This document shows positions 14,745 through 41,206 of a DNA stretch of 45,917 nt, in pieces. Each line of letters begins with the position of its first letter. The stretch's first letter is position 1. The translations under genes were made by a program, and so were the position numbers. Source of the stretch: a phage; NCBI GenBank assembly GCA_014750165.1, contig GCA_014750165.1_4319.1. One strand, 5' to 3'. Under the pieces are notes generated by a model. It worked only from the letters and a program-made list of their open reading frames with translations. It ran no database searches and had not been told where the DNA came from.

Positions 14745-14810
14745 CTCGTTAGTTTAAGTGCGGCGATTATACCGCACAGAATTTATTGTTCTTTAGCAAT
14801 TCGTGCTATT
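14745..14810 (-). promoter_or_regulatory. box/-10/leader cassette
   Basis: Minus strand reads AATAGCACGAATTGCTAAAG, 22 nt (GTGCGG..CCGCAC hairpin), then TATAAT (14771..14766). Confidence 0.6.
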
Positions 14811-16446: not shown

Positions 16447-17412
16447 ATGAGATTTAAGGTTTTTACTCGAGAGGAACTAAGCAACGAGGCTTACCACTCA
16501 GAGACTGAACACATCTCCGGCAGCTCACTTGTTGAGATTATCCAGGGCTCACCAGCTAAGTGGAAATTCAAACAACGTAACAATGATAGCAAGGCTCTTA
16601 AGTTTGGCACACTAAGCCACACGATGATTCTCGAGCAAGATGTATTCGACAAGGAGTATCTTCGAGCTACAGATCTTGATGCGATTGAAGGATTAATTAC
16701 AAGTCAGACCGGATTGGCCTCAGCACTTAAAAAAGTTGGTGTAGCTGGCACGTCCGGTAAGGGGTATAGCGAGCTAGTAGAGATGATGCATCGCTCTGGT
16801 GAGGATTGGCCTGTTAAGTGGCTAATTGAGCAGCAGGAGAGCGCTCAGGCGCTCGTGGAGGGTAAAGAGCTAGTTAGTGCAGCGGACTATGACAAAGTGG
16901 TAGCGATGCGTGAGGTTCTTTGCAACATTCCAGCATATGATGCAATCGTGAACAGCGAGACGGCGCAGAAAGAGCTATCAATCTTCGGTGAGATTCTAGG
17001 TGTTGGCGTTAAGATTCGAATCGACCATGTTGATGTTGTTGATGGAGTCGTTCGGATCACAGATTATAAAACTACCGCAGACGCTAGCCCGGAAGGATTT
17101 GGTAAGTCGGCTTTTAATCACGGATACCTTGCAAAAATGGCGCTTCAGCGCGACCTGTTTGTGAAGGCATTCAACGAGAAGAGAAAGGTTATTGTAGGAT
17201 TGCTGGCGCAGGAGAAGGTAGAGCCATATTTACCAATGCTGTACACCTTGACGGACGAACAGCTACGAATTGGTCGTCTCCAGTATCTTGAGGCGCTCGC
17301 CACTTACAAGAAGTGCAAGGAGCTAGATATCTGGCCTGGATATTCGAACGGCATTACAGAGCAAGAATTGATGATTCCTGAGTGGGCGTTAAAACAATAT
17401 AAAGAAATCTAA
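16447..17412 (+). CDS. PD-(D/E)XK exonuclease (RecE/YqaJ-like)
   Basis: IRIDHVD...RITDYKT matches a D..D/E-x-K nuclease core. Adjacent to an annealase and SSB. Confidence 0.7.
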   Translation: MRFKVFTREELSNEAYHSETEHISGSSLVEIIQGSPAKWKFKQRNNDSKALKFGTLSHTMILEQDVFDKEYLRATDLDAIEGLITSQTGLASALKKVGVAGTSGKGYSELVEMMHRSGEDWPVKWLIEQQESAQALVEGKELVSAADYDKVVAMREVLCNIPAYDAIVNSETAQKELSIFGEILGVGVKIRIDHVDVVDGVVRITDYKTTADASPEGFGKSAFNHGYLAKMALQRDLFVKAFNEKRKVIVGLLAQEKVEPYLPMLYTLTDEQLRIGRLQYLEALATYKKCKELDIWPGYSNGITEQELMIPEWALKQYKEI

Positions 17413-18640: not shown

Positions 18641-21238
18641 TTATGGCCTCATGAATCTAATTGCAGCCTGACCAGACACGCTAACTTCAGATGTATTGTG
18701 ATTAACTAAGAATACGTTAACACTACCAGTCCCGCCACCAGCCCTGGATGCAAATATATCAATACCACTAAGCCCAGAACTAACATCCACGTTTATGAAA
18801 TCACCATACTTAACTCCAGGGACGCTAACTGTTCCTAGAAATGACATTCCACCATTAGCTGCAAGTGTAACAGTGTAGTCAATATATGAAGGCTGTGAGA
18901 ATCCATTAATGAAAACAGATCCATTAACAAGCCCGCCAACATCACAGTTACTTGTGTAATCTATTCTGCTATCAGCGGATGCAGAGAGAGGGTAAGAGTA
19001 CTGCGATCCAGAGACTACAGGTAGGTTGCTTGCGCTAACCCTTACATTTGAACCTGAATTTGCAAGCACTACATAAGAGTTTGCTCCATCACTAATAACA
19101 TCAGAACTTCCACCAGAAACAAAACCAGATAAGTTGACTCCTGAAATATCAACGTCTGAGTTTGTGAATCTAAAAAGATAAGCCTCCTGTCCTTTCGGGT
19201 TTTGGTTTCTCCATGACGGTATCGAAAACCCTGAAATCTTTGCTGAATTGCAGTCAATAAGAACAAAGTCTGATCCGCCATTAATATTAACCTTTGATGA
19301 TTCATGCTGCATTCCAGTTATCGTCAACCCAGGGCACTGAGTTGCAATAAACGGCGTTAAGTTTCCAAAATTAGAGCTGCCATCGTACGCGCAGTTCACC
19401 AAAGTAGCTACGTGACAGTACTTTAGCGCCCATGACGCATAGCAATCAAGCGAGTAGCATGATGAGTACTTAACGGTTGTCCCGTAGTCTTTCCTAAAGC
19501 CCTGAATGCAATCCCACGCCCAGCAATTAACATACTCCATCAAATAAGCTGACGTCACATCGTAGAATCCATAGTAGGCACCTCTTACTATTACATTCTC
19601 AACCTTAAAGTTTGTAACTCCACCTGCGAGAGGGTCAATTGAAGAATCTCTGGTTCCAAAATCAATGCCACGACTAAAACCACTGTCTGTCGTTGGCTTA
19701 CCAGACTGATAGTTAATCCAAAAGTTAGCTATTGACCCACCTGGTTGATATCCGGTAGGGAAGTGCTCGAATCCAGAATGATCACCAGAGCATTGTATAA
19801 TTGTTCCGTATTTTGAATTTGGGTAGGTTGATGCCCCTCTTATGTTTTGAGTTCCGAAAAGTATTGGCCCACTAGTCAAAATTACACCTGGAGGAAAAGT
19901 CACATCCTGAAGCGTCGATGTTGCTCTGTTTGCTGCCGCGGTGTCATCACTTACACCGTCAGCTTTCACTCCAAACCATCTAGCATCAACTGGACCAGTG
20001 TAGCTTCTCTTCCATCTTCTATCCAATGCGTCAACAAGAATAGTACCATCATTGTCCTCGCTAGATGTGTCTGAATCATCTCTCTGGAATATACCAAAAG
20101 CATTATCTGCGATCGTCTCTCTTCCGTAACAACTAATGGAATAATCAGAACCCGAATAACCCCTTATGTCGCTATAGTTTGCCGAACCTATTTTTGAGAG
20201 TGAAGACACTCCTCCAAGATCTGCTTTTGAGTAAACGTCAAGATTAATTCTCGCAGCTTCTTTATTTGGGATGTCGCTAAGGTTGGAAGACCTTAGAAAG
20301 GTTTCACCCTTCGAGTAAACATCAAGCAACCCCCTAACCCTCAAGGCGCTAGAACCACCAGTAGCACCATCTCCACCAGGAACGCTTAGAAGTTCCCTTA
20401 CATAAAAATTCCTAGAACCAGTAGCTCCAGTAAAGGTAATTTCCGCAACCCTAAAAACTGCGTTTGAGGTTGTAGAAGGAGAAATTCTTACTACGTTACT
20501 TCCATTAATACCACGCGTTGCAAGAACATCAATACAAATAGTGGTGTTTGTCGCCGGGAACATTGAACTTAAGTCTGCCGGAATGTTAACCATGTTGTCA
20601 ATTTTGCACTGGTAACTACCACCTGAATAAAATTGCATTGTCTGCCAATCAAGAGATGTTAAAAGTGGAGTTGTTGTGCTTCCTATACCGTGTTCTGCAA
20701 AGTAAGCCACTGCGGCGGTATTCCCGGCTGCATTTATTGCGGCAACGGTTCTGTTGTATGAGTTCTGTGCATTATTGCTAGCACCAACGGCAGTTGATGC
20801 GCTTTCTGCGGCAGCAACCTGACTAGCAAGCGCCTCCGCAGCTCCAGTGGTGGATTGATTTGCAAGTTGCTCGAATCGAGGCCAGTCGAAAGTGTCTTGA
20901 CCAATAAATTGCAGCAATCCTTCGATGGATGTCTCCTTAGACTGGTAGTAACGCAAAGTCTCTGCTACATCCTGAGCTAAACCCTGAACGGTAATCCCAT
21001 CGTGAGCAAGGATCGCATAACCAGTTCCTGCAGGAACAGTTTCAGAATTAGGGTTATAAACATTAATCTGCGTATCGCTGATGATTTCTGAGATGGTGTA
21101 AATCTTCAGGGGGCTTGTTTTAAAAATAATGGTTGCACCTACACGAATCAGTGTAAGCGGTGCTTTCCATGTTGTTCCGACCCCAGTCACCTCGCCATTT
21201 GCGGCTAGCGACGCTGTTCCTAAGTCATAAATTGCCAT
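18641..21238 (-). CDS. tailspike / side tail fibre with beta-helix depolymerase-like domain
   Basis: ATG 21238 (MAIYDLGTASLAANGEVTGVGTTW, a T1-type fibre N-terminus). The central WFGVKADGVSDDTAA... stretch is typical of pectate-lyase-like beta-helices. Confidence 0.75.
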   Translation of the reverse strand: MAIYDLGTASLAANGEVTGVGTTWKAPLTLIRVGATIIFKTSPLKIYTISEIISDTQINVYNPNSETVPAGTGYAILAHDGITVQGLAQDVAETLRYYQSKETSIEGLLQFIGQDTFDWPRFEQLANQSTTGAAEALASQVAAAESASTAVGASNNAQNSYNRTVAAINAAGNTAAVAYFAEHGIGSTTTPLLTSLDWQTMQFYSGGSYQCKIDNMVNIPADLSSMFPATNTTICIDVLATRGINGSNVVRISPSTTSNAVFRVAEITFTGATGSRNFYVRELLSVPGGDGATGGSSALRVRGLLDVYSKGETFLRSSNLSDIPNKEAARINLDVYSKADLGGVSSLSKIGSANYSDIRGYSGSDYSISCYGRETIADNAFGIFQRDDSDTSSEDNDGTILVDALDRRWKRSYTGPVDARWFGVKADGVSDDTAAANRATSTLQDVTFPPGVILTSGPILFGTQNIRGASTYPNSKYGTIIQCSGDHSGFEHFPTGYQPGGSIANFWINYQSGKPTTDSGFSRGIDFGTRDSSIDPLAGGVTNFKVENVIVRGAYYGFYDVTSAYLMEYVNCWAWDCIQGFRKDYGTTVKYSSCYSLDCYASWALKYCHVATLVNCAYDGSSNFGNLTPFIATQCPGLTITGMQHESSKVNINGGSDFVLIDCNSAKISGFSIPSWRNQNPKGQEAYLFRFTNSDVDISGVNLSGFVSGGSSDVISDGANSYVVLANSGSNVRVSASNLPVVSGSQYSYPLSASADSRIDYTSNCDVGGLVNGSVFINGFSQPSYIDYTVTLAANGGMSFLGTVSVPGVKYGDFINVDVSSGLSGIDIFASRAGGGTGSVNVFLVNHNTSEVSVSGQAAIRFMRP

Positions 21239-21261
21239 TGCGTAAAGTCTCCATTTGTAAA

Positions 21262-21292
21262 ATAGCACGAATTGCTAAGTTGGATTGTAGCA
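21262..21292 (-). promoter_or_regulatory. extended -10 promoter with an inverted orphan box at the predicted transcript start
   Basis: Minus strand reads TGcTACAAT (-10 at 21289..21284). The box (21262-21279) is in the opposite orientation to the gene and starts about 7 nt downstream of the hexamer. Confidence 0.45.
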
Positions 21293-21301
21293 TCTTTCAG
21301 G

Positions 21302-21327
21302 TATAAAAAAACCTCCCGAAGGAGGTT
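21302..21327 (-). terminator. intrinsic terminator after the primase gene
   Basis: Minus strand reads AACCTCC-TTCG-GGAGGTT followed by T8. Confidence 0.8.
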
Positions 21328-22249
21328 AGTCTAGTAATTCACTTGCTTTGTATATTCGTTTTCTTATTCCTGACTTAAAAAAATTATCATCATTTGGCAT
21401 TACCACATCAAGATCGCGATCGTCAGCAACGGCGAGTAAATCAAAAGCGTGGCGAGTACAAGCGACGCGTAACTTGTAGTTTCTAAGCGCGTAAGCAACC
21501 ATTTCCATGTTGTAACTGGAGTGGCAAACAAGCACACAGCGGTTCCCTGTAGCAATGTGAACGCGATAGCCGTCAATGAAATTATCGACCAGATAAGCGT
21601 ACTCATCATCTTTAAAGGAACCAATAACAGCAATAGACTGGCGAGTATAATCTTTTGCAGCATAACTAACATCTCCCTCTTCATTGATAAACATTACATT
21701 GCACATTTCTTCTGATATACCATCACTATAGGCCATAAAACAAGGCACTGCGTGTATTAGTTCGCCTGATTTTGCCCTGCCAACATCAAAACCAAACTCA
21801 CTATAGATACCCTCGTATGTACTGAGCGGAGTTGATTCTACTCTTTCCGTCCTTTCCATTATCTCTAAGCATCTTTCGTGATCAATCTTGGCTCCCATTT
21901 TGTAGATCTGGGTTCTTGATGCTTGCTTGTTTGCCTTGTTGACAACCTCAACCGGGATAAGGTTTAGCCACTCACCGAGAACGTCGATACACTCACTGAA
22001 TGACTCGCCTCGAAGCTTCTGGACCCAGAGAATTCCATCCCCTGAGCCGCATTGGTTGCAGATAATGCCGCCATCACCCTCCTCGCTAACCTTGTTAGTC
22101 CATCTTGCCCTATCGTTGCCGCCACAATAAATGCACGGCTGATGCTTCTTAGTCTGGAAAAACTTAGGATCTGCGCCGCATATATTGACAAGAGCCTTAT
22201 CCCACAGGCCTCTCATTCTTGGTAGAACCTCTTTCTTATCGTAGTGCAT
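21326..22249 (-). CDS. DNA primase (P4-type zinc-binding domain)
   Basis: CIYCGGNDRARW...CNQCGSGDGILW matches the primase zinc-ribbon pattern. 307 aa. Confidence 0.7.
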   Translation of the reverse strand: MHYDKKEVLPRMRGLWDKALVNICGADPKFFQTKKHQPCIYCGGNDRARWTNKVSEEGDGGIICNQCGSGDGILWVQKLRGESFSECIDVLGEWLNLIPVEVVNKANKQASRTQIYKMGAKIDHERCLEIMERTERVESTPLSTYEGIYSEFGFDVGRAKSGELIHAVPCFMAYSDGISEEMCNVMFINEEGDVSYAAKDYTRQSIAVIGSFKDDEYAYLVDNFIDGYRVHIATGNRCVLVCHSSYNMEMVAYALRNYKLRVACTRHAFDLLAVADDRDLDVVMPNDDNFFKSGIRKRIYKASELLD

Positions 22250-22307: not shown

Positions 22308-22781
22308 TTACCCTTTAGCTTTTCGTGCTGCCTCGTTAGCGGCCTTAATCTTGCGCCATGATCGACACTCTGGCTTGGTGGCTAACTCAGCCTCAGTAAC
22401 CACGCGTAGCATGTGACGCTTTTTGCACCGGAGTGTCAGTGGCTTGCCGTTACCGTCAAATTGCAGGTCTGGTCGGCAGAATGTAGCACGAAAACCCTCT
22501 CCGTTTCGTTTGTAGTAGTTGTGCGACAGTTGAGCACCGCGCGCAGAAATCATACCACGCTTAAACCATTCTTCTACAGCCTGCGGAGTTACCTTTAACT
22601 TCTTTGCAATATTCGCCTTTGTGACGAAGAAATCAAGGAGCATCTCAAGCCGCGCGCGTAGCCCGGCTCTTACTTCATCTTTTAAAACGTAGTAGCCTGA
22701 AGGTCGTTTACGTTGTTTTTTGTCTTCAGTGCGGATAGTTCCGTTATTACCGTTAGTGGTTCGCTTGTCAACTGCATTCAT
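22308..22781 (-). CDS. helix-turn-helix DNA-binding protein
   Basis: ANIAKKLKVTPQAVEEWFKRG is HTH-like. Basic N- and C-termini. 157 aa. Confidence 0.6.
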   Translation of the reverse strand: MNAVDKRTTNGNNGTIRTEDKKQRKRPSGYYVLKDEVRAGLRARLEMLLDFFVTKANIAKKLKVTPQAVEEWFKRGMISARGAQLSHNYYKRNGEGFRATFCRPDLQFDGNGKPLTLRCKKRHMLRVVTEAELATKPECRSWRKIKAANEAARKAKG

Positions 22782-22793
22782 TTCATCACCTCA

Positions 22794-22840
22794 ATAGCAT
22801 TTTTTGTTAAAAGTCATTCAGATTTGATGGTAGTATTGTA
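22794..22840 (+). promoter_or_regulatory. box cassette (T-spacer variant) upstream of the helicase
   Basis: ATAGCATTTTTTGTTAAAA, a 21-nt spacer, then TAGTAT (22831-22836). Confidence 0.45.
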
Positions 22841-24877: not shown

Positions 24878-25293
24878 ACATAACAGATAAAGAATATTAC
24901 ATTGAGTTTTACCCAGGTTCAGTTAAGTCATGCCCGAAAGAGGATGACGAACAAATCTTTTGCTCTGATTGGGTTAAGTATAACTATCCAGAGATGGTAT
25001 TTTTCCACTGTGTGAATGAGGGTAAGAAAACCATTGGTCAAGCAAGAAAAGACCAGGCAAAGGGTTTGCTCAAGGGCGTATCAGACTGCATGTTTTTGAT
25101 ACCTGAATCCGTGCGAGGAAGGTATCCATTTGGCGCAATAGAGCTAAAGAGAGCTGGAAAAACACAGGCTAGCCCAGTCAGTAACGAGCAGAAGTCATTC
25201 CTGAAAAGTGTAAGGGAATCAGGAGGTTTCTCCGCTGTGGCTTACGGTCGCGAGGGTTTTCTGGCAGCATTCAAAGAAATGATTTCTAAATAG
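24874..25293 (+). CDS. VRR-NUC domain nuclease
   Basis: GTGA overlap with the helicase. GVSDCMF..IELKR matches the D..E-x-K core. The stop TAG lies inside the box. Confidence 0.7.
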   Translation: MNITDKEYYIEFYPGSVKSCPKEDDEQIFCSDWVKYNYPEMVFFHCVNEGKKTIGQARKDQAKGLLKGVSDCMFLIPESVRGRYPFGAIELKRAGKTQASPVSNEQKSFLKSVRESGGFSAVAYGREGFLAAFKEMISK

Positions 25294-25354
25294 CACGAAT
25301 TGCTAAACTCGATTTTAAAAGATGTTGTATAGTTACTTCATAGAAACGAAACAC
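25289..25354 (+). promoter_or_regulatory. box/-10/leader cassette
   Basis: AATAGCACGAATTGCTAAA, 22 nt, TATAGT (25328-25333), then TCATAGAAACGAAAC. Confidence 0.6.
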
Positions 25355-25577: not shown

Positions 25578-25580
25578 TTA

Positions 25581-25645
25581 ATAGCACGAATTGCTAAAGA
25601 CTAATCGGTGAGGTGGTGTATTATCACCACATCGAAACGAAACGC
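25581..25645 (+). promoter_or_regulatory. box/-10/leader cassette
   Basis: ATAGCACGAATTGCTAAA, 22 nt, TATTAT (25619-25624) in the loop of GTGGTG..CACCAC, then ACATCGAAACGAAACGC. Confidence 0.6.
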
Positions 25646-26783: not shown

Positions 26784-27920
26784 ATGGCAACTGCAAAAAT
26801 CACTAACGAAGAGCTGCGTGAAGAGCTTGCTAATGGCATGACAAACAAGGCAATCGCAGAGAAATACGGAATGAACATTCGCAACGTTGAATTGCGTCGT
26901 AGTAAATTGGCAAAGAGTGGAGAATTGCACGGAAACCCAGGTATCAAGAAGTTAGTTCCTGACGGTTATATGGTTAAGGGAACCTCCACGATGATTGATG
27001 CGGATGGTAACGAGAAGCTGCGCTGGGTTAAAACCTCTGTAGACAATGAGCGACTTGAGGTTTTAATGGAGCAAGCTCGAGAAGCATTTTGCTCTGATTT
27101 GCCAAAGGCTATTCCATCTGAATCACCGAATGTTAACTTTGATGATAACACGCTTGCGATGTATCCAGTTTTTGATTTACACATTGGGGCGATGGCTCAC
27201 AAACATGAGTGTGGCGAAAACTATGATACAGCAACAGCAGAGAAAGTAATGAATGGGTTCTTTGACTACGCTGTTGATAAGGCTCCAAACTCTAAGAATG
27301 CTGTATTGGTATTGGGTGGTGATTTCCTGCATTACGACTCTCTGGAGGCTAAAACCCCGGCATCAGGTCATATCTTAGATTCTGACAGTCGTTACGCCAA
27401 GATTGTTTATGTTGCAATCCGGTCAGTGCGTCGTGCCATTTCTCGAATGATGGAAAAGCACCAAGTTATTGAAATTAAAGTAATAAGTGGCAATCACGAC
27501 GAGGCAGGAATGGTTTGGCTCCGCGCTGCACTTGCTGCATTTTATGAAGATGAGCCTCGCGTAAATGTTGATGTTAGCCCAGCCGCAATGATGATGACCA
27601 GCTTTGGAACGACGCTTATTGGATACACTCACGGGCACCAAATGCGGAAAGCCGATACTCGACTAACTGTTATGGCAACTGATTTTCGTAAGTTATTTGG
27701 CCAAAGTGAGTATGTTTACACACATAGTGGCCACTGGCATTCGCAGAAGATTACAGAAACAAACTTGGGAATTGATGAGGTTCATGGGCAGCTTGGAAGC
27801 CCTGACGCGTACTCCGCAAATGGCGGTTGGCGTTCTCAACGTCAAGCGGCAGTCATTGTCTACCATAAAGAATTCGGTGAAGTTGGCCGATTCATTTGTC
27901 GCCCTAAAATGTTTGGCTAA
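26784..27920 (+). CDS. metallophosphoesterase with N-terminal HTH
   Basis: DLHIG, GGDFLH, GNHD and GHWH match calcineurin-like motifs. The N-terminal NKAIAEKYGMNIRNVELRR is HTH-like. Confidence 0.7.
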   Translation: MATAKITNEELREELANGMTNKAIAEKYGMNIRNVELRRSKLAKSGELHGNPGIKKLVPDGYMVKGTSTMIDADGNEKLRWVKTSVDNERLEVLMEQAREAFCSDLPKAIPSESPNVNFDDNTLAMYPVFDLHIGAMAHKHECGENYDTATAEKVMNGFFDYAVDKAPNSKNAVLVLGGDFLHYDSLEAKTPASGHILDSDSRYAKIVYVAIRSVRRAISRMMEKHQVIEIKVISGNHDEAGMVWLRAALAAFYEDEPRVNVDVSPAAMMMTSFGTTLIGYTHGHQMRKADTRLTVMATDFRKLFGQSEYVYTHSGHWHSQKITETNLGIDEVHGQLGSPDAYSANGGWRSQRQAAVIVYHKEFGEVGRFICRPKMFG

Positions 27921-27985
27921 TAGCGCTTTTTGTTAAAACGATACCCGCGAAAGCGGGTATTATTGTTTTATCGAAACGGCAGGGG
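27919..27985 (+). promoter_or_regulatory. box/-10/leader cassette (T-spacer variant)
   Basis: AATAGCGCTTTTTGTTAAAA, 22 nt (ATACCCGC-GAAA-GCGGGTAT hairpin), TATTAT (27958-27963), then TATCGAAACGG. Confidence 0.55.
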
Positions 27986-29031: not shown

Positions 29032-29586
29032 ATGACTAAATTATTTATCCTTAATGGCCCAGCTGGAGTTGGCAAGGACACTATAGCCGATATCATGGTT
29101 GAGACTGGTGTCGCCAAAGAAAAGGTATCATTCAAGTCACCAATGTTTAACGTTGTAAAAGGAATGCTATCAAGCGATGAATTTGATGGATTCATCAAGA
29201 ATTACGACAATAGAGACTATAAGGAATCACCTCATGGATTTCTTAGCGGTATGACAGTTCGTGAATTTATGATTTGGATTAGCGAGTCTGTAATGAAGCC
29301 AGTCTTTGGTGATGATGTTTTCGGTAAAAGGCTAGCACAGTCACTTGGTGATGGTTGCTACATTTGCGCTGACGGTGGGTTTGCTAGCGAGATTAAGCCA
29401 CTGATCGACACTGGTGTTGAGGTAACGTTAATCAGGTTGCATAGGGAAGGGTACACATTTTATGGCGATAGTCGCTCATACATTCACGGTGTGTGTGCAA
29501 GAGAGATTGATGTTCATGTTGTTGATGGTGATATTAATGGAACATCAGCATTGGTAAGGCACGTAATAAATAGCACGAATTGCTAA
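29032..29586 (+). CDS. P-loop (d)NMP kinase-like protein
   Basis: NGPAGVGKDT P-loop. ATG 29032 lies 7 nt after GGAG (track start 29026). The C-terminus is box-encoded NSTNC. Confidence 0.65.
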   Translation: MTKLFILNGPAGVGKDTIADIMVETGVAKEKVSFKSPMFNVVKGMLSSDEFDGFIKNYDNRDYKESPHGFLSGMTVREFMIWISESVMKPVFGDDVFGKRLAQSLGDGCYICADGGFASEIKPLIDTGVEVTLIRLHREGYTFYGDSRSYIHGVCAREIDVHVVDGDINGTSALVRHVINSTNC

Positions 29587-35030: not shown

Positions 35031-35299
35031 AATTACGCAATGGTTACACTATAATATCTATATATAACAACCATTTAGTATAATTATTATTATTATATAT
35101 ATTACTATGTATATCATGTAACCACGCATCCGGCGGGGGTCGATAGTTTTTCTATGAAAATGACATTTTCTATATATATAAGGATAGGCATATACCCTCC
35201 CCGATTTCCGCGGAAATCCATACACAGGCAAATTACATACGCTATAGCTGGGCTGAGGTAGCAAAAAGCGTAACCGGGGCCAATATAAACACGAAATAA
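35031..35299 (+). repeat. control-region repeat, copy B
   Basis: Collinear with 15666..15938. The core is 35031-35122 and the second block is 35233-35299. Confidence 0.8.
35258..35299 (+). pseudogene. remnant of the 5' end of the ORF-15902 homologue
   Basis: GTA GCA AAA AGC GTA ACC GGG GCC AAT ATA AAC ACG AAA TAA aligns codon for codon with ATG CCA AAA AAC GTA ACT AAT GGC AAT ACC TAC ACG GAA at 15902. Confidence 0.5.
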
Positions 35300-35302
35300 C
35301 AC

Positions 35303-35330
35303 TTGATAACGTGTATATGTGTGTTATTAT
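35303..35330 (+). promoter_or_regulatory. sigma70-like promoter for the rightward small-gene operon
   Basis: TTGATA (35303-35308), 16 nt, TATTAT (35325-35330), then a CATCTTAACGAAGGG leader. Confidence 0.5.
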
Positions 35331-35907: not shown

Positions 35908-35988
35908 TTGCGGTACAGCGAAGAAGATGTGGAGAGGGCGATTGAGTTCTACCGGAAAGCTAAATCACTACTGAATGGTGAATATTAA
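35908..35988 (+). CDS. possible 26-aa ORF (TTG start)
   Basis: Protein-like sequence RYSEEDVERAIEFYRKAKSLLNGEY. Its stop overlaps the next ATG (TAATG). The start is uncertain. Confidence 0.3.
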   Translation: MRYSEEDVERAIEFYRKAKSLLNGEY

Positions 35989-36215
35989 TGCTTATAAAAT
36001 GCGTGTATGCAAGGCAAGCCAATCACCACAACCTTTCAGTTGTAAATGGTGGGATATACTCGGCAAAGCCAATCACTCGCTTTAATGGCTCATACTACAT
36101 CAAGGTTGATGGCAATGAGTACATGGTGAAGACGATAGGTGAAGCTCTTATGATAAAAAGCCTTGGCGTCATAATGGCTAAATTCGAAATCTTTCACAAT
36201 AGCACTAATTGCTAA
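35988..36215 (+). CDS. hypothetical protein ending in NSTNC
   Basis: 75-aa ORF whose C-terminus is encoded by the box. Confidence 0.55.
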   Translation: MLIKCVYARQANHHNLSVVNGGIYSAKPITRFNGSYYIKVDGNEYMVKTIGEALMIKSLGVIMAKFEIFHNSTNC

Positions 36216-36701: not shown

Positions 36702-36835
36702 TTTACATCCATACTTACTACACTGGGAAGTTTAATAGCGTTAAGCATTCCAGTGTTCACGATAGCTACGAGAGCGCAAAGGCCCAATGGTTGGTTCTTG
36801 GTGGTGATATCAATTCATATAGAGTCGCTGAATAG
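36698..36835 (+). CDS. hypothetical 45-aa protein
   Basis: ATGA overlap at its start, and its stop TAG lies inside the box. Below the ORF-track cutoff. Confidence 0.45.
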   Translation: MIYIHTYYTGKFNSVKHSSVHDSYESAKAQWLVLGGDINSYRVAE

Positions 36836-36897
36836 CACGAATTGCTAAAACAGTATTGGGGTAATTTGGTATAGTTACCCCATCGAAACGAACGAGG
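36831..36897 (+). promoter_or_regulatory. box/-10/leader cassette
   Basis: AATAGCACGAATTGCTAAAA, 22 nt, TATAGT (36870-36875) in the loop of GGGGTAA..TTACCCC, then CATCGAAACGAACGAGG. Confidence 0.6.
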
Positions 36898-38658: not shown

Positions 38659-38736
38659 GCTCTGCTAGCTCAATTGGATAGCAGCAACGACCTTCTAAGT
38701 CGTAGGTTACTGGTTCGAGGCCAGTGCAGAGCGCCA
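38659..38736 (+). tRNA. tRNA-Arg (anticodon UCU), CCA encoded
   Basis: Acceptor GCTCTGC/GCAGAGC, anticodon stem ACGAC/GTCGT with loop CTTCTAA, T arm ACTGG-TTCGAGG-CCAGT, discriminator G followed by CCA. Confidence 0.9.
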
Positions 38737-39571: not shown

Positions 39572-41143
39572 ATGAGTGATTTAATCGTGTGGGATGAACT
39601 TACATACGCAGAAAAGATGGCTATCAAGGCCATCTCTGAGCATAGTTTCGAGGGGTTCTTGCGGTGTTTCTTCCAGATAACGCAGGGTGAGAGATTTAAA
39701 ATGAATTGGCACGCGAAGTACCTTTGCCGCGTCATAGATGAGATTCTTGATGGTAAGAGAAAGGACACCATCATAAACATAGCTCCGGGATCTGCCAAAA
39801 CCGAACTGTTTAGCATCCACTTCCCTGTATATAGCATGATTAAGATTAAGAAGGTTAGAAATCTTAGTTTGTCTTTCTCTGATTCATTGGTGAAGCGCAA
39901 CTCAAAGCGTGTTCGTGACCTGATAAAGTCAAAGGAGTTCCAGGAGCTTTGGCCCTGCAAGTTTGGAACATGCAGGGATGACGAAATTCAAGTGCTGGAT
40001 GAGAATGGTAAAGTTAGGTTTGAGTCTATATCTAAGGCGATGGCGGGGCAGGTGACGGGAAGCAGGGGAGGCTACATGACTGACGATTATAGTGGTTGCA
40101 TAATGCTGGATGACCCACTAAAACCTGATGACGCGCTAAGTAATGTAAGAAGAGAGGCTGTCAACATGCTTCTCAAGAACACAATTCGTTCACGTCGAGC
40201 TAGCTCAGTAAAGGGAAAGGAAACGCCAATACTTGCCGTGCAGCAAAGACTTCATGTCCTGGACACTAGCCACTTCATGGAGTCAGGGCAGATGGGCATC
40301 AAGTTCGACGTAGTGAAAGTTCCAGCCATAGTCACGGAGGATTACGCCGACACGCTCCCTGATTGGATTAAGCAGCAATTTATTGATGATGTTCTTTCGT
40401 CACCATTTGTTGAGAGGGATGGGGTTAAGTATTACAGCTACTTCCCAGCAAAGGAATCAATAGAAGACTTGATGGCAATGCGGGATGCTGACCCTTATAC
40501 ATTCCTAAGTCAGTACGCTCAAGAACCAGTAGCACTTGGCGGCAATCTGATTAACGTGGATTGGTTCCAGCGCCTTAGCGATACATTCAGACCTCCCGCT
40601 AAGTATGATTATCGATTCATCACATGCGATACTGCGATGACCACAAAGAGTTATAGTGACTTCTCTGTACTTCAGTTGTGGGGATATAAGGATGCTAAGA
40701 TTTACCTGATAGACCAGCGCAGAGGTAAATTTGAAGCACCAGAGTTGGAGGCTGAACTACTGGACTTCGAGAAGAAATCAAGGGCAACCAGTCAGTCAGA
40801 TGGCATCCTCCGAAAGATCATCATCGAGAAGAAAGCGTCTGGTATCGGCCTGATTCAATCAGCTGGCAGGGTTATGCGAACACCGATAGAGTCATACGTA
40901 CCGGATAATGACAAGCTAACCAGGGTGATGAGTGCACTACCACAGATTAAGGCTGGTAACGTAGTTCTTCCAGAGTCATCGCCGTGGCTAAACGGATTGC
41001 TCACTGAGGTTGCGGCTTTTACGGCAGATGACTCGCATAAGCACGACGACCAAATTGACTGTCTAACAATGGCGGTAAACCTTGTACTTAACATCGCGGA
41101 TGATCCTAAGGCGAGACTAATGCGCATAGCAGGAATTAAATAG
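39572..41143 (+). CDS. terminase large subunit
   Basis: 523 aa. ATPase motifs (NIAPGSAKTE, IMLDDP) and a C-terminal nuclease region (..HDDQIDC). The stop TAG lies inside the box. Confidence 0.9.
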   Translation: MSDLIVWDELTYAEKMAIKAISEHSFEGFLRCFFQITQGERFKMNWHAKYLCRVIDEILDGKRKDTIINIAPGSAKTELFSIHFPVYSMIKIKKVRNLSLSFSDSLVKRNSKRVRDLIKSKEFQELWPCKFGTCRDDEIQVLDENGKVRFESISKAMAGQVTGSRGGYMTDDYSGCIMLDDPLKPDDALSNVRREAVNMLLKNTIRSRRASSVKGKETPILAVQQRLHVLDTSHFMESGQMGIKFDVVKVPAIVTEDYADTLPDWIKQQFIDDVLSSPFVERDGVKYYSYFPAKESIEDLMAMRDADPYTFLSQYAQEPVALGGNLINVDWFQRLSDTFRPPAKYDYRFITCDTAMTTKSYSDFSVLQLWGYKDAKIYLIDQRRGKFEAPELEAELLDFEKKSRATSQSDGILRKIIIEKKASGIGLIQSAGRVMRTPIESYVPDNDKLTRVMSALPQIKAGNVVLPESSPWLNGLLTEVAAFTADDSHKHDDQIDCLTMAVNLVLNIADDPKARLMRIAGIK

Positions 41144-41206
41144 CACGAATTGCTAAACTAAGTCGCCACGGATGGCGTATAGTTACTTCATCGAAACGAG
41201 AGGAGA
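41140..41206 (+). promoter_or_regulatory. box/-10/leader cassette
   Basis: ATAGCACGAATTGCTAAA, 22 nt (CGCCA-CGGA-TGGCG hairpin), TATAGT (41178-41183), then TCATCGAAACGAGAGGAG. Confidence 0.6.

Follow-up and report, generated by a model that had tools for sequence, protein, structure and literature searches.

What does a short regulatory-looking box do when it stands backwards over the predicted start of a structural gene? The question is raised by a stretch of phage DNA of 45,917 nucleotides (hereafter, the window), which belongs to an Rtp-like coliphage of the Drexlerviridae (Braunvirinae) and which, in the region of interest, is 83–91% identical to BEK6, JeanPiccard, SU57 and Rtp. T1-like phages are classic, very common and notorious laboratory contaminants. 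To our knowledge, their genomes contain neither an RNA polymerase gene nor a sigma factor gene and very few sigma70-consensus promoters, and their transcription programme is little known. The literature that we searched contained no transcription-start, binding, expression or time-course data for Drexlerviridae.

A re-annotation of phage TLS in 2024 described 21 copies of a 21-nt direct repeat, aaATAGCACnnnTTGnTAAAA, lying along the direction of transcription about 76 nt before start codons and falling into A, T and G subtypes; similar repeats were noted in T1, Rtp and Rogue1 (PMC11447400). Their function was left between a stoperator, an enhancer-binding site and an UP-like element, and none of the 18 repeats tabulated for TLS lies at the tail fibre (PMC11447400). 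The boxes of the window are identical to these repeats in core sequence. Compared with TLS-type repeats, however, the copy at the tail-fibre gene is reversed, stands 23 nt from the ATG and downstream of a −10 element, and lacks a −10 partner.

Box family and ordinary cassettes

About 20 copies of the box, with the consensus ATAGCACnnnTTGnTAA, occur in the window. The 18-mer TTAGCAATTCGTGCTATT gives 14 matches at three or fewer mismatches over the whole window, against 0.05 expected by chance, and with the degenerate pattern ATAGCAnnnnTTGnTAA there are 15 exact matches and 19 with one mismatch, adding T-type copies at 2341, 7413, 22794, 27920, 28482 and 34751. The A, T and G subtypes of the published middle triplet are all present among the window boxes.

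Nineteen of the boxes aim at a gene and have a −10 hexamer 21 nt further on. On the gene strand, such a cassette runs from the box through a 21-nt spacer to a TATAGT/TATAAT-like hexamer, often followed by a leader (CATCGAAACGA), a Shine-Dalgarno (SD) sequence and the ATG. If the hexamer is taken as −12 to −7, the dyad of the box is centred at about −42, the position that a previous, sequence-only reading of the window had also assigned to it. The dyad arms, TAGCA and TGCTA, are 10 bp apart from centre to centre; the box is only partly palindromic, since its conserved flanks are unlike each other. The box ends in TTGCTA, which is 22 nt from the cassette −10 and therefore unable to serve as a −35 element.

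The primase gene appears to be preceded by a cassette of this kind (22331–22288, minus strand), comprising a degenerate box, gCAGCACGAAAAGCTAA (22331–22315), 21 nt and CATAAT (22293–22288). Clearer boxes stand at the same place in Sd1, T1 (L016, about 35930–35990), L083, L084 and TLS (DR10/T57). The degenerate primase box falls within the last codons of the preceding regulator gene, and its CATAAT lies within the loop of the terminator hairpin of that gene (22301–22278).

A reversed box at the predicted start of the tail-fibre transcript

On the minus strand, the window carries, in this order, a regulator gene (22308–22781), a terminator, the DNA primase gene (21326–22249; assigned by a Zn_Ribbon_Prim match of 2.3e-9 and the annotations of relatives), a second terminator and a lateral tail-fibre/tailspike gene (18641–21238); a helicase gene is divergently oriented, on the plus strand from 22883 onwards. 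T1 has the matching order ST23, ST24 and ST26, with ST22 divergent. The tail-fibre gene encodes 865 aa from an ATG at 21238, the start in all annotated homologues, which open with MAIYDLGT. Its product shares its N-terminus with T1 gp26 and shows a weak pectate-lyase-like beta-helix match; the Rtp counterpart is Rtp50.

The strong terminator that the sequence-only reading had placed behind the primase gene, at 21302–21327, was found at 21327–21303 on the minus strand. It consists of AACCTCC-TTCG-GGAGGTT, a 7-bp stem with a UUCG loop, and a run of seven T residues, and it overlaps the primase stop codon. In other genera, hairpin and T-run are kept by structure with differing stems. Just past it lies the extended −10 element TGCTACAAT (TGcTACAAT; 21292–21284, minus strand), already recognized from the letters alone, whose pattern TGnTAnnnT is kept in every lineage, with or without a box. 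The window offers no usable −35 for this promoter, only TTTTTT/GTTTTT from the T-run of the terminator.

The −10 element is followed by the spacer CCAAC (21283–21279), the sequence of which varies between phages, and then by the box, AATAGCACGAATTGCTAA on the plus strand (21261–21278), an exact match to the family consensus. It is the element previously placed one base further on, at 21262–21279, and agrees with ATAGCACnnnTTGnTAA at 17 of 17 specified positions (21262–21278); its dyad arms are TAGCA (21263–21267) and TGCTA (21273–21277). The box is family-forward on the plus strand and thus reversed relative to the minus-strand tail-fibre gene. Indeed, it is reversed to both flanking genes, and does not follow the family rule, by which a box points along transcription and precedes a start codon by about 76 nt. 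Between the box and the ATG lie 23 nt, including the SD sequence GGAG (21252–21249, minus strand), which is kept in an alignment of relatives. Read along the gene strand, the order is hence terminator (21327–21303), TGCTACAAT (21292–21284), CCAAC, TTAGCAATTCGTGCTATT, 23 nt and ATG (21238).

From this geometry we infer a transcription start at 21278–21276 on the minus strand, 6–8 nt after the −10 element, that is, within the first bases of the box. Beginning 5 nt after the conserved extended −10, the box would cover about −1 to +17, with its dyad centre at about +8. The distance of about 7 nt after the hexamer that had been noted before resolves into the 5-nt spacer and an arm, TAGCA, that begins at the seventh nucleotide.

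Conservation of the reversed box

For comparison, we assembled the hits of a profile search with the tail-fibre N-terminus from 80 viral contigs, together with the window, T1 and GenBank relatives, which yielded 77 distinct tail-fibre upstream sequences of 110 nt. The order terminator, TGnTAnnnT, reversed box, SD, ATG recurs in about 46 of the 77. In these box-bearing sequences, the box lies between the TAnnnT hexamer and the SD sequence, and the hexamer is TG-extended in all but one. Phages with the reversed box include T1, Rtp, NBD2, ESCO41, Ec_L1 and Henu7-like phages, and 15 annotated GenBank relatives from seven genera have the identical order of elements; NBD2 and ESCO41 keep it despite different terminator stems and leaders. 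In T1, the promoter reads TTGCAA, 17 nt, TGATAAAAT, 6 nt, TTAGCAATTCGTGCTATT. While terminator stems, spacers and leaders diverge between phages, the tail-fibre box is near-invariant. The earlier suggestion that the box lies over the predicted +1 thus agrees with what is conserved from Rtp-like phages to T1, namely a fixed short distance downstream of the −10 element.

The gap between the −10 element and the box is constant within a lineage, being 5 nt in Rtp-like phages, NBD2, ESCO41 and Ec_L1 (with the spacers CCAAC, CCACT, GCGCT, TGATT, TTATT, GGCCT, TTTTC and AGCGT), 6 nt in T1-like phages and 11 nt in Henu7/IsaakIselin-like phages. The 5/6-nt and 11-nt classes are about half a helical turn apart. 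In the Henu7 group, the box would stand at +5 to +21 and hence on the other helical face, still overlapping the footprint of the polymerase. A half-turn difference with the overlap maintained fits occlusion better than a face-specific contact. In the Henu7 group, a conserved TTGTCA/CTGTCA directly precedes the tail-fibre box.

A reversed tail-fibre box was not found in Webervirus-like phages (Klebsiella), JK06-like Rogunavirus, L084, TLS or the Vibrio phage Vc1. All of these lineages retain the terminator and the tail-fibre promoter, and the Webervirus-like and JK06-like phages, TLS and Vc1 also retain forward boxes and the regulator gene (for L084, the comparison is limited to a box scan). 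As the promoter persists without the box, the promoter appears to be the older, autonomous part, and the box an accessory kept in many deep branches; by the sequences compared, the tail-fibre promoter is independent of the box, which is dispensable because several lineages do without it.

The tail-fibre boxes also stand apart from the rest of the family in what surrounds them. A −10-like hexamer follows within 19–23 nt in 254 of 264 distinct other boxes (in 208 at exactly 21 nt), compared with none of 34 distinct tail-fibre boxes. The ATCGAAACGA leader accompanies 115 of the 264 other boxes and none of the 34; CATCGAAACGA, with at most two mismatches, likewise follows 115 of 264 distinct boxes across the family and is missing from the tail-fibre leader. 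Nevertheless, the positions that are invariant (ATAGCAC, TTG and TAA) and those that vary (8–10 and 14) are common to tail-fibre and cassette boxes. Shared rules of this kind in both orientations point to the same recognition, as expected if a protein reads duplex DNA, and sit poorly with models that act at the level of RNA or depend strictly on orientation. A G at position 8 (a "G-type" middle) occurs in 82% of the tail-fibre boxes and 25% of the others.

The regulator gene and a second reversed box

The gene two genes upstream of the tail fibre (22308–22781, minus strand) encodes a 157-aa helix-turn-helix (HTH) regulator of the Cro fold, homologous to Rtp52 and T1 ST23 and a candidate for the box-binding protein. 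In the description of the Rtp genome by Wietzorrek et al. (2006), Rtp52 was reportedly proposed as a regulator acting on about 10 inverted repeats. The window protein gives a weak P22_Cro match in Pfam, its homologues carry PF14549 and PF15943, and its structure model shows a Cro-type HTH with a pLDDT of 87. HTH folds of the Cro type typically bind dyads as a dimer. An N-terminal arm, DKRxxNGNNGTxRxxDxxxRK (residues 5–25; 22707–22769, minus strand), is invariant in 28 homologues, including that of the Vibrio phage. Although modelled at low confidence, it is better conserved than the HTH helices and could thus contact DNA or polymerase. The C-terminus contains a conserved Cys-containing segment.

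The tail-fibre copy had been described as the only box pointing the opposite way from its gene. It is indeed reversed, and the other copies face their genes, but a second box is reversed as well, in the 5' leader of the regulator gene. This T-type box, ATAGCATTTTTTGTTAA (22794–22810, plus strand), is forward for the helicase promoter, which has the −10 element TATTGT (22833–22838). The regulator has a sigma70-type promoter found by sequence scan, TTGTCT-17-TACAAT (22863–22835, minus strand), with the same layout as P57/DR11 of TLS, and relative to this promoter the box lies reversed at about +19 to +35. A box stands between the regulator and helicase genes in every lineage examined, in each case reversed within the regulator leader and past a sigma70 promoter. 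Thus, both box-independent promoters found here, those of the regulator and the tail fibre, fire into a reversed box, and the arrangement suggests that the regulator is autoregulated through the box in its own leader. Moreover, the regulator −10 (TACAAT, minus strand) and the helicase −10 (TATTGT, plus strand) overlap face to face at 22833–22840, as do TATAAT and TATTAT at the equivalent place in T1; by their sequence, the two promoters could form a mutually exclusive divergent switch.

We compared HTH and box for covariation with Vc1. The Vc1 box is identical to that of the window, with a regulator that is only 47% identical and a putative recognition helix that differs (RLTNAY versus QAVEEW), and the pairing of regulator and box is thus not confirmed by this comparison. 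The unchanged box beside a diverged helix weakens the case for the regulator as the reader and makes a host factor or another phage factor possible. Recognition may depend on other parts of the regulator, or else on a different, more conserved factor.

A proposed operator at the tail-fibre promoter

Based on these results, we propose that the reversed box is a double-stranded DNA operator at which a bound factor would block RNA polymerase, and we assign to this reading a probability of about 0.5. Much of that figure depends on the Cro-fold protein being the reader of the box, and the regulator encoded at 22308–22781 is probably this factor. Both the identity of the binding protein and the sign of its effect are what we infer from the sequences compared. 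Host polymerase would use the tail-fibre promoter unaided, through the extended −10 in Rtp-like phages and through a near-consensus −35 together with an extended −10 in T1. Once made, the box-binding factor would sit at about −1 to +17 and occlude DNA needed for opening and escape, whereby tail-fibre transcription would be repressed or limited. At about 19 cassettes, the same factor, centred at about −42, would replace the missing −35 and help the polymerase.

Repression by the factor that activates most other phage promoters would call for an extra step to account for late onset. Late tail-fibre expression might be reached if repression were partial and served to keep a low-copy protein low, if the regulator fell by autorepression, or if it were titrated by replicated genomes. 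The full version of this scheme, in which one factor acts as a two-way switch that activates some 20 cassettes from −42, represses its own and the tail-fibre promoter from sites over or shortly past the start, and releases the latter late by titration, seems to us a speculative and rather unlikely extension. If it held, titration over about 20 boxes per genome would provide a copy-number timer for a late structural gene.

The strongest competitor of the proposed operator, though itself unlikely, is that the polymerase of the host, or one of its conserved proteins, reads the box directly as an unusual upstream promoter element, with no phage regulator involved and with the reversed copy serving as a decoy or a competing dock that damps the promoter, or in some other host-dependent role. 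It would account for the finding that the box does not vary among phages of Escherichia, Klebsiella, Enterobacter and Vibrio, in contrast to the HTH helix of the regulator, and UP-like and enhancer-type options were left open for TLS (PMC11447400). However, the conserved core, ATAGCAC, contains G and C and is unlike an A/T-rich UP element, TTGnTA at 22 nt from the −10 is too far away for a −35, the GG-N10-GC spacing of sigma54 promoters is absent, and the box always adjoins the regulator gene.

That the box has a positive or architectural function for the tail-fibre promoter, through activation from a downstream site or through bridging or looping among the roughly 20 boxes, strikes us as doubtful. 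At all other sites, the factor is taken to activate, and the promoter of Rtp-like phages lacks a −35; but the helical phase between −10 and box is not the same in all lineages, the gaps of 5/6 nt and 11 nt being roughly half a turn apart, T1 with its near-consensus −35 and extended −10 should need no activator, and lineages without the box retain the same promoter.

That the box acts in the RNA, as a 5'-terminal hairpin UAGCA-AUUCG-UGCUA stabilizing the tail-fibre mRNA or affecting its translation, had been offered by the sequence-only reading as an alternative to an operator. Such a hairpin would form the very beginning of the predicted mRNA, and the 18-mer by itself has a folding energy of −3.8 kcal/mol (z = −3.2). 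When the leader is folded as a whole, however, its minimum-energy structure leaves the hairpin out and is no more stable than those of shuffled sequences (z = +0.61). Furthermore, the natural variants of the TTATCA and TTAACA types, TTATCAATTAGTGCTAT (12397V, CY1 and TR2) and TTAACAAAACGTGCTAT (Henu7 group), lose the central G-C pair with no compensating change and fold at 0 kcal/mol, and the invariant C of ATAGCAC would sit in the loop. No Rfam 15 family was matched at its gathering score, the best being STnc370 with 23.5 bits against 54 (E = 0.53). On the strength of the folding and the natural variants, we rejected the hairpin as highly improbable.

It is even harder to believe that the box is a non-functional relic of a cassette left by rearrangement: several lineages lack it with no obvious replacement, but T1 and the Rtp-like phages alike keep a perfect or near-perfect consensus amid non-coding bases that diverge, and the spacing to the −10 element is fixed. 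Finally, a forward cassette on the plus strand, driving an antisense RNA to the primase 3' end or a small plus-strand gene, was rejected as the least likely of all, since the TATAAA found 23 nt past the box in the window is an unconserved part of the terminator A-run (relatives have CATAAA, CAATAA, CACAAA or ACAAAA, and the distance differs, being 40 nt in T1), none of the 34 tail-fibre boxes is followed by a −10-like partner, compared with 254 of the 264 others, and there is neither a conserved leader nor a credible ORF.

Relation to known systems

The box family is already known, and both an operator over a start site and a single protein that activates from −42 and represses from +8 are classical designs. 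What we regard as new, and did not find in the accessible literature, is the conserved reversed copy at the tail fibre with its fixed −10 spacing, its patchy distribution and its value for deciding between models of the box.

The lac O1 operator is centred at +11, and a dyad over +1 to +20 at the tail-fibre promoter would block polymerase in the manner of such operators. Dual activators and repressors are represented by lambda CI, acting at OR2 on PRM as opposed to PR, and by the controller (C) proteins of restriction-modification systems; as with these, a site of the same type, if placed near −42, would stand in for a −35 and bring about activation. The candidate regulator has an HTH fold of the Cro/CI/C-protein type, but differs from Cro proteins in its additional conserved N- and C-terminal parts. 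In a further difference from these systems, the window site is only partly symmetric, and its regulation is proposed from sequence.

The Mor and C activators of phage Mu bind dyads centred at −43.5 in promoters lacking a −35, and the cassettes resemble these promoters in having a box at about −42, no −35 and a good −10. In contrast, the regulator shows no sequence match to the Mor family, only the weak P22_Cro match in Pfam, and we know of no Mor or C site that acts as an operator over a start site. Stoperators silence a prophage and are tied to the repressor of lysogeny. Those of mycobacteriophage L5, suggested as a likeness in the TLS paper (PMC11447400), resemble the boxes in being short, numerous and scattered over transcribed regions; the T1-family phages, however, are virulent, and each of their boxes is typically joined to a −10 hexamer at a set distance of 21 nt.

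The reversed copy amounts to a natural experiment, in which the same constraints act on the box in the opposite orientation and with no promoter partner. The outcome speaks for a dedicated factor that recognizes the box in the form of duplex DNA. A cassette and the tail-fibre promoter together make a simple two-promoter system for finding this factor and whether it activates or represses. The reversed box also marks a control point for the gene of a receptor-binding protein, which is useful in host-range engineering.

Other features of the boxes and promoters of the window

Three further promoter-type readings of the box were rejected. A sigma54 promoter fails on sequence inspection, as GCAC-N3-TTGC is 2 nt short of TGGCAC-N5-TTGC and has AG in place of GG; an UP element, an A/T-rich tract at −40 to −60, does not agree with a tail-fibre box downstream of the −10 element and a core, TAGCAC, that is not A/T-rich; and a −35 at long spacing is precluded by the 22 nt between TTGCTA and the −10.

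In many cassettes, the spacer includes an inverted repeat rich in G and C, which either flanks the −10 element or extends up to it (27920–27975, 14758–14810, 25580–25640, 36831–36880 and 41139–41190), for example GATACCCGCGAAAGCGGGTATT followed by ATTGTTTTAT, which was flagged by a terminator scan as well. Terminator-like hairpins and −10 elements thus overlap systematically in the cassettes, forming "transcripton" boundaries. These spacer hairpins, together with the basic N-terminal arm of the regulator, gave rise to the idea of an RNA site similar to lambda nut/boxB upstream of the hairpins, which we set aside because it cannot explain the equally conserved reversed copy.

The leader CATCGAAACGA lies 8–20 nt after the cassette −10, at or just past the predicted start (25343–25353 and 41193–41203). 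Boxes often also provide the stop codon of the upstream gene, either as the TAG within ATAGCAC or as the terminal TAA (17410–17412, 25291–25293, 29584–29586, 36213–36215 and 41141–41143), so that a gene and the next promoter are packed without a spacer.

Sigma70 consensus sites showed no enrichment in the window over shuffled sequences. A divergent region at 35264–35330 carries sigma70-like promoters on both strands, the plus-strand one being TTGATA-16-TATTAT with a TG and the minus-strand one TTGCCA-16-GATAAT (34831–34804), and to judge by its sequence may be an early promoter region. A tRNA gene was found at 38659–38733 on the plus strand (Rfam, 52.9 bits), at the place where relatives have an annotated tRNA-Arg.
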